The notes: a model not told the origin generated them from the sequence alone. A stretch of 64,000 nt of DNA from an uncultured Eubacteriales bacterium (GCA_964541225.1 CAZIPN010000004.1:24382-88381); one strand, 5' to 3'. Positions 3,923 to 15,477 are shown, counted from the first letter of the stretch. Made by a program: numbers and translations.

Positions 3923-4771
3923 ATGCGGCAGATTGCTATCTATGGAAAGGGCGGCATCGGCAAGAGCACCACGACGCAGAACACCGTCGCTGCGCTTGCT
4001 GACGCCGGCAAGAAGGCGATGATCGTCGGCTGCGACCCCAAAGCCGACTCGACCCGACTGATACTGAACCAGAAGATGCAGGTCACGGTCATGGATCTCG
4101 CACGCGAGCGGGGCAGCGTGGAAGACCTCGAGATCGAAGAGGTGCTGCAGACCGGCTTCGGCGGAATCCGCTGCGCCGAGTCGGGCGGGCCCGAGCCAGG
4201 TGTTGGCTGCGCCGGCCGAGGCGTTATCACCGCCATCAACTTCCTCGAGGAAGAAGGCGCCTACACCGACGACCTCGACTTCGTGTTCTACGACGTTCTC
4301 GGCGACGTCGTGTGCGGCGGCTTCGCGATGCCGATCCGCGAGGGCAAGGCCCAAGAGATCTACATCGTCACCTCCGGCGAGATGATGGCGATGTATGCGG
4401 CCAACAACATCAGCCGAGGAATCCTGAAGTACGCGCACTCCGGTGGCGTTCGCTTGGGCGGGCTCATCTGCAACTCACGCAACACGGACCGCGAGGACGA
4501 GCTGATCGAGGCGCTCGCCAAGAAGCTCGGCACGCAGATGATCCACTTCATCCCGCGCGAGAACGAGGTTCAGCGCGCCGAGCTGCGGCGTCAGACCGTC
4601 ATCCAGTACAACCCCGAGCACGCACAGGCCGACGAATATCGCCAGCTCGCCAAGAAGATCGCCGAGAACGACATGATGGTGATCCCCACGCCCATCACCC
4701 AAGACGAGCTCGAGGAGCTCCTCATGGAGTTCGGCATCATGGAAGCCGAGCCTGCCGAGGGGGCTGCCTAG
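3923..4771 (+). CDS. nifH: nitrogenase iron protein (dinitrogenase reductase)
   Basis: 282 aa. P-loop GKGGIGKST. [4Fe-4S] ligand contexts [10 protein letters not shown] and VCGGFAMP. Strong SD GAAGGAGGAG. Confidence 0.97.
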
Positions 4772-4772
4772 C

Positions 4773-6224
4773 ATGTCGGCCTCCAACATCAATCAAACGC
4801 AGAAGATCATCGACGAGATTCTCGAGGTCTACCCCGAGAAGGCTCGCAAGGATCGCGCGAAGCACATCGCGCCCAACGATCCGAGCGGCAGCTGCTCAAG
4901 CTGCGCGGTGAAGTCCAACGTCAAGTCGCGGCCGGGTCTGATGACCGTGCGCGGCTGCGCGTACGCCGGATCGAAAGGCGTGGTGTGGGGCCCGGTCAAA
5001 GACGTCGTGCACATCAGCCACGGCCCTGTGGGATGTGGCGCGTACTCGAACTGGTCGCGCCGCAACTACTACAACGGTACGACTGGCGTCGACGCGTTCG
5101 GCACGCTGCACGTGACGAGCGACTTTCAAGAACGCGACATCGTCTACGGCGGCGACAAGAAGCTCGACAAGATCGTCGATGAGCTCGACGCGCTCTTCCC
5201 GCTGGCTCGCGGCATGTCGGTGCAGTCTGAATGCCCGGTCGGGTTGATCGGCGACGATATCGAGAGTGTGTCCAAGCGCAAGACCGAGGAAATCGGCAAG
5301 CCTGTTGTGCCGGTGCGCTGCGAGGGCTTTCGCGGCGTGTCGCAGTCGCTCGGCCACCACATCGCCAACGACTCGATCCGCGATCACGTCTTCGGCAAAG
5401 CTGAGAGCGAGATCGAGACGACGCCCTACGACATCACGATCATCGGCGACTACAACATCGGCGGGGACGCGTGGGCGTCTCGGCGAATCCTTGAGGCGAT
5501 GGGGCTGCGCGTGATCGCGCAGTGGACGGGTGACAGCACGATCGCCGAGCTGGCCAACGCGCCCAAAGCCAAGCTCAACCTCATCCACTGCTACCGGTCG
5601 ATGAACTACATCTGTCGGCACATGGAGGAGGAGTACGGCATCCCGTGGCTCGAGTACAACTTCTTTGGGCCGACGAAGATCTACGCCTCGATCCGCGAGA
5701 TCGCAGCGCAATTCGATGAGACGGTGCAGGCCAAGGCCGAAGCGCTCATCGAGGCCATGAAGCCGGAGATGGACGCCGTGATCGAGGAGTTCCGGCCGCG
5801 TCTCGAGGGCAAGACCGTGATGCTGTACGTCGGTGGTCTGCGCCCGCGCCACGTGATCGGCGCGTACGAGGATCTCGGCATGGAGGTCGTCGCGGCGGGA
5901 TACGAGTTCGGCCACGCCGACGAGTACAAGCGCACGTACCCGCTGATGGCCGAGGGCTCGATCGTCGTCGACGACGCCACCCCCTATGAGCTCGAGGAAA
6001 TCACCAAGCGCGTGAAGCCCGATCTCGTCGGCTCCGGCGTGAAGGAGAAGTACGCCTACCACAAGATGGGCGTCCCTTTCCGCCAGATGCACAGCTGGGA
6101 CTACTCGGGGCCGTACCACGGGTTCGACGGCTTCAAGGTCTTCGCGCGTGACATGGACATGACCGTCAACAGCCCCACGTGGGATCTCGTGCGCAAGCCC
6201 GCAGGCGAGCTAGCAGGAGGGTGA
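4773..6224 (+). CDS. nifD: nitrogenase molybdenum-iron protein alpha chain
   Basis: 483 aa. [33 protein letters not shown] (Gln/His at the cofactor), HCYRS (FeMo-co Cys) and [17 protein letters not shown] (FeMo-co His) are all present. Starts 1 nt after the nifH stop. Confidence 0.97.
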
Positions 6225-6228
6225 TCAG

Positions 6229-13741: not shown

Positions 13742-13808
13742 GGCTGGTGCCGACGGGATCGATCCGGCATCGAATGCGGCAGTCTCGCCCAGCGAGAGGA
13801 GGTGCACC

Positions 13809-14486
13809 GTGGACATGTCGACCATAGCGTTTCCGCTGCGGCTCTCGTTGCAGGTCGCGGGCGTCTCCACGGTGTTCGTGGCGCTGATCGGCGTGCCGCT
13901 CGCGTACGTGCTTGCCACAAAGAAGTTCCCCGGCAAGCAGGTCGCCGATGTCGCGGTGATGCTGCCGATGGTCTTGCCGCCGATCGTCACCGGCTACTAC
14001 CTGCTGCTCATCATCGGCAAGAACGGCCTCTTCGGGCATTTCATGCAGGCGGTCACGGGCACAGCCGTTGGGCTGACATTCACGTGGCAAGCGGCGGCGA
14101 TCGCGTCGTTCGCGATATCGCTTCCTCTCGGCGTGACGACCGCGCGCGCGGCGATCTCGGCAGTTGATCCCGCTCACGGAGACGCGTCGCGCACGCTCGG
14201 ACGCTCGGAGATCGAGACTGCGCTGTTCGTGGTGATCCCACTTGCAGCTCGCGGCATCATCGCTGGGCTCGCGCTGTCGTTCGCTCGCGCGGTGGGTGAG
14301 TTCGGCGCCACCATCATGGTGGCTGGCAACATTCCTGGGCGCACGAATACCATGGCGCTCGAGGTCTACAACGCTGTCATCTACGGCGATTGGCGAACGG
14401 CGACCATGCTGGTTGTCGTGTTCACCGTCGTGTCCGCTGTCGTTCTGCTCGGCGCGACGAAACTCAGCGCGGCGGTCGTGCAATGA
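13809..14486 (+). CDS. modB: molybdate ABC transporter permease
   Basis: 225 aa, about 5 TM. ABC permease EAA-like loop (ASRTLGRSEIE). ATGA overlap with modC. Confidence 0.85.
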   Translation: MDMSTIAFPLRLSLQVAGVSTVFVALIGVPLAYVLATKKFPGKQVADVAVMLPMVLPPIVTGYYLLLIIGKNGLFGHFMQAVTGTAVGLTFTWQAAAIASFAISLPLGVTTARAAISAVDPAHGDASRTLGRSEIETALFVVIPLAARGIIAGLALSFARAVGEFGATIMVAGNIPGRTNTMALEVYNAVIYGDWRTATMLVVVFTVVSAVVLLGATKLSAAVVQ

Positions 14487-15271
14487 GCGCACTCTCGGTG
14501 ACATTGCGCAAGAAGCTGCCTGGTTTCGACCTCGACGTCGGATGGGCCGTGCGCGATGGCTTCACGGTGCTCTTTGGCTATTCGGGCGCGGGCAAGTCGC
14601 TGACGCTATCGATGATCGCAGGAACGCTGCGCCCGGATGAGGGCCGCGTCGTCCTCGGCGGCGAGAGTCTGTGCGACACGCGCGCTGGAGTCTGGGTGCC
14701 TGCGCAGAAGCGACGCATCGGCTACGTGTCGCAGGGCTCACAGCTCTTCCCGCACATGACGGTGGTCGGCAACGTCGAGTACGCGCTCAAGTCCACCCCA
14801 CGTAAGGAGCGTCGCCCCCGCGCGACGGAGCTGCTCGAACGGTTGCGGGTTGTCGAACTTGCCGACAAACGCCCGCACGAGCTGTCCGGCGGTCAGAAGC
14901 AGCGGTGCGCGCTCGCGCGGGCCTTGGCGCTCGAACCCCAGGCACTCTTGCTCGATGAGCCACTCTCTGCACTTGACCTGCCGATTCGCGTGGAGATGCG
15001 CGAGCTGCTGCGCGCGGTCCAGCGCGACACAGGTGTTCCCTTCGTGATGGTCACGCACGACTTGGTCGAGGCGTGCACGCTTGCCGACACGCTCGTGGTC
15101 TACTCAGGAACGGGTGCTGTTCAGGTCGGTTCGCCTGCAGAACTCGTGGGCAATCCCGCAACGCCAGAGATACGCAAGCTCCTGCACGCGATGGAAGTAC
15201 CGGAGGCCGTGTTCGATCAGGCACGCGCCCCCCGGCTCGTCACATCCCGCCGAGAGGAACACGTCGCATGA
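14483..15271 (+). CDS. modC: molybdate ABC transporter ATP-binding protein (no C-terminal TOBE/Mop domain)
   Basis: 262 aa from the ATG overlapping the modB stop. Walker A GYSGAGKS, signature LSGGQKQRCALARAL, Walker B LLLDEP. Confidence 0.85.
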   Translation: MSALSVTLRKKLPGFDLDVGWAVRDGFTVLFGYSGAGKSLTLSMIAGTLRPDEGRVVLGGESLCDTRAGVWVPAQKRRIGYVSQGSQLFPHMTVVGNVEYALKSTPRKERRPRATELLERLRVVELADKRPHELSGGQKQRCALARALALEPQALLLDEPLSALDLPIRVEMRELLRAVQRDTGVPFVMVTHDLVEACTLADTLVVYSGTGAVQVGSPAELVGNPATPEIRKLLHAMEVPEAVFDQARAPRLVTSRREEHVA

Positions 15272-15477
15272 AGCTCTCAGCCAGAAACCAGCTTGCCGGT
15301 ACGGTCGCTTCCGTAACGCGCGGTCCCGTGACCTCGCTCGTCAAGATCGACATTGGGGGCGGTCAGCACATCGGCGCGACACTCACGACCGAGGCCGCCG
15401 ACGAACTCAATCTGACCGCTGGCACATCTGTGACTGCCGTGTTCAAAGCGAGTGCGGTTATCATCGGGGTGGAGTAG
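15268..15477 (+). CDS. mop: molybdopterin-binding (Mop/TOBE, molbindin) protein
   Basis: 69 aa. MKLSARNQLAGTV...IDIGGG is the classic Mop signature. ATGA overlap with the modC stop. Confidence 0.8.
   Translation: MKLSARNQLAGTVASVTRGPVTSLVKIDIGGGQHIGATLTTEAADELNLTAGTSVTAVFKASAVIIGVE

Follow-up and report, generated by a model that had tools for sequence, protein, structure and literature searches.

The 64,000-nt stretch of DNA analysed here (GCA_964541225.1 CAZIPN010000004.1:24382-88381, labelled as an uncultured Eubacteriales bacterium and called the window below) very probably carries a functional molybdenum (Mo) nitrogenase operon of the published nifHDKENX-I1I2-(fdxN)-B type, belonging to a Coriobacteriia host and with molybdate uptake genes (modABC and a TOBE protein) at its 3' end. 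A total of 13 same-strand genes were identified at 3923-15477 on the plus strand by open reading frame (ORF) listing, translation, and NCBIfam and Pfam scans, in the order nifH-D-K-EN(fused)-X-I1-I2-fdxN-B-modA-B-C-mop (Table 1). A first-pass annotation, made by a model from the sequence of the window, had called this layout unusual. That description does not hold: the layout is the normal, already published state of a sizeable anaerobic lineage, with the same H-D-K-E-N-X-I1-I2-(fdx)-B order found in 25 of 25 informative relatives and described in the literature (PMC11773926; PMC12501866). The remaining content of the annotation was recovered, including the coordinates of the 13 genes, the gaps of 126 nt or less, the start/stop overlaps (five of 4 nt by one count, four in the ordered list of junctions), the Group I indel states of NifD and NifK, the NifI1/NifI2 pair after nifX, and a NifA homologue together with a sigma-54 promoter.

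Group I nitrogenases are defined by the absence of a ~52-residue NifD insertion at Azotobacter vinelandii position 391, a long NifK N-terminal extension, and alpha-Trp444, the residue at alpha-444 being Tyr in all other groups (Raymond et al., 2004; Howard et al., 2013, PMC3760896). All three features of Howard et al. are present in the window proteins. Over residues 7-476, NifD is matched to residues 7-478 of A. vinelandii NifD with one gap of two residues (789 bits), and in this alignment the P-cluster ligands Cys62, Cys88, and Cys154, the residues Gln191 and His195, the iron-molybdenum cofactor (FeMo-co) ligands Cys275 and His442, and the Group I marker Trp444 are all conserved. The alignment with Clostridium pasteurianum NifD reaches only 389 bits and breaks off at query residue 388, the point at which the insertion of the clostridial protein starts. 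The window NifD has no alpha-loop insertion; the first-pass annotation had noticed no obvious extra insertion of ~50 aa. Against structures in the Protein Data Bank (PDB), NifD scored 762-814 bits with Group I proteins, 478 with Methanosarcina acetivorans, 389 with C. pasteurianum, 330 with 9spz, 271 with VnfD, and 248-257 with AnfD. The N-terminus of the 502-aa NifK is encoded exactly as the annotation had quoted it; residues 2-50 match Pfam DUF3364, and from residue 3 on the protein corresponds to A. vinelandii NifK from residue 8 on (606 bits). NifK aligns with C. pasteurianum NifK only from residue 52 (C. pasteurianum residue 11), and with methanogen NifK likewise only from residue 52. Because of these indels, motifs, and PDB bit scores, NifD and NifK are of Group I by every indel and motif test run.

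The resemblance to the A. vinelandii and Klebsiella systems thus covers colinear NifD and NifK, all cluster ligands, alpha-Trp444, the beta-chain N-terminal extension, and a sigma-54 promoter with a NifA-family activator. Unlike those systems, the window has no NifL and no nifUSVWZM/TY/Q, its NifEN is fused, its NifB is devoid of a NifX-like domain, and it has the NifI pair that is absent from aerobes. The nifBHDKENXhesAnifV cluster of Paenibacillus is likewise compact, single-stranded, and built around a Group I-type enzyme, with a NifD that is 69% identical to the window NifD and also lies outside the proteobacterial clade in the NifD tree. In Paenibacillus, however, nifI, nifA, and a sigma-54 promoter are all absent and control is by GlnR instead (PMC6429469); nifB is the first gene of the cluster and carries a NifX-like domain, and NifE and NifN are two distinct proteins. 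The NifD tree was a neighbour-joining tree with Kimura distances, rooted on NifE, and comprised the window and 32 related loci, all Group I-type sequences with no Group II or III members. Within this set, the window sequence fell outside the proteobacterial-type clade (99.5% bootstrap) and grouped with those of its two closest relatives, L001 and L002, at 100% support. The base of the tree, where the NifI-bearing sequences, Paenibacillus, and one Clostridiales metagenome-assembled genome (MAG) are placed, is unresolved.

The two PII-like genes after nifX are adjacent paralogues that overlap by 4 nt, the first encoding a protein with a short T-loop and the second one with an extended T-loop. 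NifI1 matches M. acetivorans NifI1 (PDB 9p1x_H) end to end at 121.8 bits, vs 67.3 for its best GlnB/GlnK match, and NifI2 scores 104 bits with M. acetivorans NifI2 (9p1x_G), vs 74.7. Sequences identical to the two are named "nitrogen regulatory protein PII 1" and "PII 2" by JGI. Judged by these scores, the pair are true NifI1/NifI2 orthologues and not GlnB/K proteins, as the first-pass annotation had proposed. Orthology with the methanogen pair extends over the full 105 aa of NifI1 and over both T-loop flanks of NifI2. The arrangement around them is different: the nifI genes lie between nifH and nifD in methanogens and after nifX in the window, and M. acetivorans has the NifD alpha-loop and no NifK N-terminal extension, the reverse of the window.

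To see how common the layout is, NifD relatives were scanned with one genome per species, which returned 80 loci, and the loci were surveyed by tblastn with the window proteins; in 33 of them (L001-L033), NifD is at least 72% identical to that of the window. The closest loci are a 2.5-Mb metagenome chromosome (L001) and a MAG (84-85% NifD identity). NifD proteins at 72-79% belong to many Thermodesulfovibrionales/Nitrospirota MAGs and to MAGs labelled Chloroflexota, Actinomycetes, Aquicultor, and Pseudomonadota, and those at 71% or less to Gammaproteobacteria, Paenibacillus, and others. Among the 33 loci, nifI1-nifI2 immediately follow nifX in all 25 that reach past nifX, and in none do they lie between nifH and nifD. 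Nearly all of these 25 loci encode NifEN as one frame of 850-950 aa; NifB is ~300 aa, and NifI2 aligns over its full 141 residues. In the loci L034-L080, tblastn gave no nifI match in any. Linkage to mod genes was seen in several relatives at varying sites, namely upstream (L014), in the nifK-nifEN interval (L025), and downstream (L001, L028, L029, L030). In L025, it is nifB together with modBCA that occupies this interval (12932-15986). In L011, both nifK and nifEN are broken into two frames apiece (11347-15794), representing either a frameshift or an assembly error.

The same type of cluster has been described before. Nichio et al. (2025) listed nifHDKENXI1I2B for Thermodesulfovibrio yellowstonii, Dissulfurispira thermophila, and Desulfuromonas soudanensis and pointed out that some anaerobes have both nifA and nifI1I2 (PMC11773926). 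Hisano et al. (2025) described a nifHDKENXI1I2B operon with fused nifEN and a downstream nifA in Thermodesulfovibrio TK110, measured acetylene reduction in TK110 and T. yellowstonii, both of which have this cluster type, and suggested that NifA and NifI act jointly (PMC12501866). A 2026 reconstruction places the gain of nifA before the loss of nifI1I2 (PMC12903952). The window shares with TK110 and T. yellowstonii the gene order, with nifI1-nifI2 after nifX and nifB last, and with TK110 the fused nifE-nifN and the downstream nifA homologue; the Thermodesulfovibrionales loci in general resemble it in NifD (72-79%), fused NifEN, the 141-aa NifI2, and a NifB of ~300 aa. In contrast to Thermodesulfovibrio, the host of the window is a high-GC member of the Coriobacteriia and not of the Nitrospirota, modABC and the TOBE gene are joined directly to nifB, and the candidate upstream activator palindrome is different. 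Earlier publications already cover the arrangement, the dual regulation, and the presence of nif genes in Coriobacteriia MAGs of the OPB41 type, and nothing is overturned by the present case.

The sigma-54 -24/-12 element TGGCAC-N5-TTGC upstream of nifH is the sole exact match in the 64 kb, vs 0.14 expected, and matching elements precede nifH in six related loci (L001, L002, L007, L009, L014, and L025). A nifA homologue lies ~1.5 kb downstream of the cluster on the opposite strand; its orthologue in L001 (84% identity) directly follows modC. It is presumed to be the activator of the nifH promoter. A perfect palindrome, GCGACA-N4-TGTCGC, occurs once in the window vs 0.01 expected by chance and is located ~75-90 nt upstream of the sigma-54 element. 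Its core, CGACA-N4-TGTCG, lies equally far from nifH (-165 to -152 relative to the ATG) in L001 (8976-8989) and L002 (1570-1583), the closest relatives, so that the position is kept in three Coriobacteriia-like genomes. The palindrome is a candidate for standing in place of the canonical NifA site. Canonical TGT-N10-ACA sites were found in the more distant relatives L009, L025, and L031. A sigma-54-like sequence with one mismatch, TGGCAT-N5-TTGC, is located at 22755-22769, 44 nt upstream of a pirin gene (22813-23682), and hints at the use of sigma-54 elsewhere in the genome; matches with one mismatch are not above chance.

The host was assigned by valyl-tRNA synthetase (ValRS) and NifD comparisons. 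Every named protein that matched the window ValRS with 73-80% identity comes from a MAG of the Coriobacteriia, the Anaerosomatales, or "Actinobacteria HGW". The NifD cluster formed at 90% identity has 42 members from many samples, and several of them are labelled "Coriobacteriia bacterium" at NCBI. On these comparisons, the host is an anaerobic Coriobacteriia (Actinomycetota, OPB41/Anaerosomatales-like) MAG. A Firmicutes host, suggested by the Eubacteriales label of L002, was rejected on the ValRS matches and the NifD cluster names. The occurrence of nifHDK in OPB41-type Coriobacteriia MAGs has been remarked on before (PMC8921683); a paper on cultured Anaerosomatales makes no mention of nif. 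The G+C content is 60-70% throughout the window with no compositional break at the nif region, and the G+C content at third codon positions (GC3) of the nif genes (0.80-0.88) is within the range of the rest of the window. L001 shares 84% NifD and 77% ValRS identity with the window, and because of these paired values, the cluster is consistent with vertical inheritance within the class.

Two alternatives bear on whether this is a working nitrogenase system with its own switch-off proteins. The PII pair could be sensors of the GlnB/GlnK type with a target other than NifDK, for example NifA, an ammonium channel, or glutamine synthetase, and both proteins do match the general P-II Pfam family as well as the GlnB and GlnK NCBIfam models below cut-off. 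This is highly improbable, however, as both resemble the NifI1 and NifI2 of known structure much more than they do any GlnB/K, their short and long T-loops are as in methanogens, the pair is always adjacent and always within the nif cluster in the 25 loci, and no amtB is nearby. The cluster as a whole could also be a recently transferred island or a decaying relic with no part in host physiology. The same cassette does occur in MAGs labelled Nitrospirota, Chloroflexota, Actinomycetota, and Pseudomonadota, and this implies horizontal transfer at some past time. A recent island or relic nevertheless has hardly any probability given that the cluster contains no frameshifts or internal stops and resembles the rest of the window in GC and GC3, that the same cluster is found in L001, a second Coriobacteriia genome, at the NifD and ValRS identities given above, and that close NifD homologues (the cluster of 42 sequences) recur in many samples.

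A third alternative concerns not the function of the cluster but its transcription. The junctions between the 13 genes, in order, are +1, +4, +6, -4 (GTGA), +33, -4 (GTGA), +1, +126, +2, +67, -4 (ATGA), and -4 (ATGA) nt. The start codons of nifB, modA, and modB were picked by the analyst from several in-frame possibilities; if nifB started at the GTG further upstream (11868), only 9 nt rather than 126 would separate it from fdxN. Because of this spacing and the lack of terminator-like sites on the plus strand within 3923-15477, one or a few translationally coupled messages are predicted, and a single transcript of ~11.6 kb, as proposed in the first-pass annotation, is plausible. Alternatively, nifHDKENXI1I2-fdxN, nifB, and modABC-mop may be separate units with their own promoters, for example under Mo-responsive mod control. 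The two largest gaps, before nifB (126 nt) and modB (67 nt), have room for promoters, and nifB is sometimes ~1 kb or more away in relatives (L009, L011, L027); since the positions of both nifB and mod vary among relatives, the nif, nifB, and mod modules appear separable. Separate units are nonetheless unlikely, if still a serious option: no second sigma-54 element was found on the plus strand, sigma-70-like promoter matches in the cluster are not above chance, internal terminator-like sites are missing, and nifB and modA are only 2 nt apart, with modB, modC, and mop each overlapping the next by 4 nt. The three longest intergenic gaps folded no better than shuffled sequence (z = -1.05, +0.74, and -0.51), and no Rfam RNA family was found in the nif region.

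Several observations weigh against a complete and NifI-controlled nitrogenase operon under NifA. The NifA homologue clears the TIGR01817 cut-off narrowly, by ~5 bits (533.7 vs 528.85), and the canonical site TGT-N10-ACA was not found in the 420 nt upstream of nifH. The NifX score with TIGR02663, 105.6 bits, is just short of the NCBIfam cut-off of 112. Neither rpoN, nifV, nor an Fe-S cluster assembly system is located in the 64-kb window. To our knowledge, no organism has yet provided biochemical evidence that NifI binds a MoFe protein of the Group I type.

With these points in mind, the functional operon may work as follows. Under nitrogen limitation, the NifA homologue would activate the sigma-54 promoter upstream of nifH, probably acting from the palindrome, and the 13 genes would be read as the one or few coupled messages proposed above. 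Stand-alone NifB, fused NifEN, and NifX would assemble FeMo-co, for which FdxN would carry electrons and ModABC/Mop would provide the molybdenum. NifH and the Group I-type NifDK would reduce N2. These roles are suggested by orthology and the conserved ligands. When fixed nitrogen is back and 2-oxoglutarate falls, a heterotrimer of two NifI1 and one NifI2 would cover the NifH docking face of NifDK and switch the enzyme off, to be released again by 2-oxoglutarate and ATP. This last step follows the methanogen logic, for which the direct evidence is confined to methanogens: biochemistry on Methanococcus maripaludis and the cryo-EM structure of the M. acetivorans proteins. In the M. acetivorans supercomplex (PDB 9p1x), two NifI1 and one NifI2 sit on the NifH docking face of NifDK and are released by 2-oxoglutarate and ATP, and the NifI2 T-loop grips the NifD alpha-loop insertion; the NifD of M. 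maripaludis has no such insertion, so other contacts are needed there (PMC12439982).

The window NifD is also without the alpha-loop to which the NifI2 T-loop attaches in M. acetivorans, and for this reason an insertion in the NifI2 T-loop of the clade is proposed as a substitute contact. A database search with NifI2 returned 1709 sequence clusters at E <= 1e-10, of which the best 120 are all 137-142 aa. When 26 NifI2 proteins of the clade were aligned with that of M. acetivorans, the clade showed 16 additional aligned positions in the T-loop, the whole loop being ~21 residues longer, and the inserted segment carries a motif, PTPSxYALEHxLPK, that is strongly conserved across the 26 members. 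It is possible, if tentative, that this insertion is a docking device for a Group I-type MoFe protein with the NifK extension and no alpha-loop, and that the clade represents an evolutionary intermediate in which the Group I enzyme and NifA are present and NifI is not yet lost. If so, the NifI-nitrogenase inhibitory complex would be structurally unlike the methanogen one.

Some of the individual genes deserve comment. The fused NifEN scores above the cut-offs for both of its halves (Table 1); with the fusion model NF011047 it reaches 914 bits, below the model cut-off of 1229. A fused NifEN of 919 aa is available as PDB 9i0g. The nifX start codon is a GTG that overlaps the nifEN stop. NifB has no NifX-like C-terminal domain, Radical_SAM being its sole Pfam domain. 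ModC has no C-terminal TOBE domain, and the separate TOBE gene, mop, overlaps the modC stop codon by 4 nt. Mop is either a molbindin or a split-off regulatory domain of ModC; because ModC is without TOBE and the 69-aa TOBE gene adjoins it with this overlap, it may be the split-off regulatory domain and not a molybdenum storage protein. No match to the nifV, nifS, nifU, nifW, or nifZ families was found among the ~50 window ORFs scanned with NCBIfam and Pfam, in agreement with the first-pass annotation.

Table 1. Features of the nif-mod cluster in the window, its control elements, and in-frame TGA sites in related contigs.
Feature	Description	Position	Strand	Basis or remark
Palindrome	Perfect palindrome GCGACA-N4-TGTCGC	3757-3772	.	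Candidate upstream activator site for NifA homologue
Promoter	Sigma-54 -24/-12 promoter TGGCAC-N5-TTGC	3845-3859	+	64 nt upstream of nifH ATG
nifH	Nitrogenase Fe protein, 282 aa	3923-4771	+	TIGR01287 471 bits, cut-off 394
nifD	MoFe protein alpha chain, 483 aa, Group I type	4773-6224	+	TIGR01282 801 bits
nifK	MoFe protein beta chain, 502 aa, N-terminal extension	6229-7737	+	TIGR01286 778 bits
nifEN	Fused FeMo-cofactor scaffold, 890 aa	7744-10416	+	TIGR01283 (nifE) 552 and TIGR01285 (nifN) 376, both above cut-off
nifX	FeMo-co carrier, 133 aa	10413-10814	+	Pfam Nitro_FeMo-Co; TIGR02663 105.6 bits
nifI1	PII-like nitrogenase switch-off subunit, 105 aa	10848-11165	+	Similarity to M. acetivorans NifI1; Pfam P-II
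nifI2	PII-like switch-off subunit, 141 aa, long T-loop	11162-11587	+	Similarity to M. acetivorans NifI2; Pfam P-II
fdxN	nif-specific 2x[4Fe-4S] ferredoxin III, 89 aa	11589-11858	+	TIGR02936 102.8 bits, cut-off 80.6
nifB	Stand-alone radical-SAM form, 304 aa	11985-12899	+	TIGR01290 328 bits, model positions 9-283 of 441 only
modA	Molybdate-binding lipoprotein	12902-13741	+	TIGR01256 160 bits; lipobox LAAGC in translation
modB	Molybdate ABC permease	13809-14486	+	TIGR02141 217 bits
modC	ABC ATPase, 262 aa	14483-15271	+	TIGR02142 model positions 1-226 of 353 only; Pfam ABC_tran only
mop	Single TOBE domain, 69 aa	15268-15477	+	TIGR00638 78 bits; Pfam TOBE 67 bits
nifA homologue	GAF + AAA+ sigma-54 activator + HTH_8, 510 aa	16999-18531	-	TIGR01817; Pfam domains
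TGA in L028	In-frame TGA in nifD	10178-10180		
TGA in L029	In-frame TGA in nifD	10178-10180		
TGA in L084	In-frame TGA	~201-203		
TGA in L085	In-frame TGA	~5889-5891		

The interval between mop and the nifA homologue holds two genes on the nif strand with no terminator between them, one TrmO/TsaA-like (15566-16033) and the other an ORF that matched no family (16132-16968); L001 has neither. Other genes of the window include murI, an MBL-fold gene, rph, and rdgB in a row, tig-clpP-clpX, valS-folC, and a Psr-type molybdoenzyme operon. A chemosensory cluster at 26251-36874 encodes a DUF4388 protein, CheR-TPR, a response regulator, a PilB-like ATPase with MshEN, two CheW, an MCP, CheA-CheW-REC, and CheB. 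Cultured members of the lineage have been described as non-motile and piliated. An Rfam match to the nhaA-I RNA at 57292-57342 (50 bits, gathering score 37) overlaps the start of an ORF with no Pfam match (57319-58596).

In the related loci, an in-frame TGA was found exactly at the codon of the P-cluster ligand Cys62 of nifD (...MTVRG*AFAGAKG...) in four independent contigs (Table 1). Two belong to MAGs, one labelled Actinomycetes and the other Candidatus Aquicultor, and two are metagenome contigs; each has a Group I-type nifD of the nifHDKENXI1I2B clade. The frame is otherwise intact where the contig is complete, and the codon looks like a selenocysteine (Sec) candidate. In 2013, alpha-Sec62 was reported only for three Group III NifD proteins (PMC3760896); a Group I-type alpha-Sec62 in the Actinomycetota seems not to have been described before.

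The value of the window is modest: it provides a clean and complete Coriobacteriia example in which an Azotobacter-type MoFe protein is combined with NifA/sigma-54 control and what appears to be an archaeal-style NifI switch-off. Its 11.6-kb, 13-gene layout, with molybdate uptake, a fused NifEN, and a minimal NifB, also makes it a compact template for engineering. The lineage is the natural place to study the docking of NifI on MoFe proteins that have no alpha-loop, and the order in which layers of regulation came and went as nitrogen fixation moved from anaerobes to aerobes.

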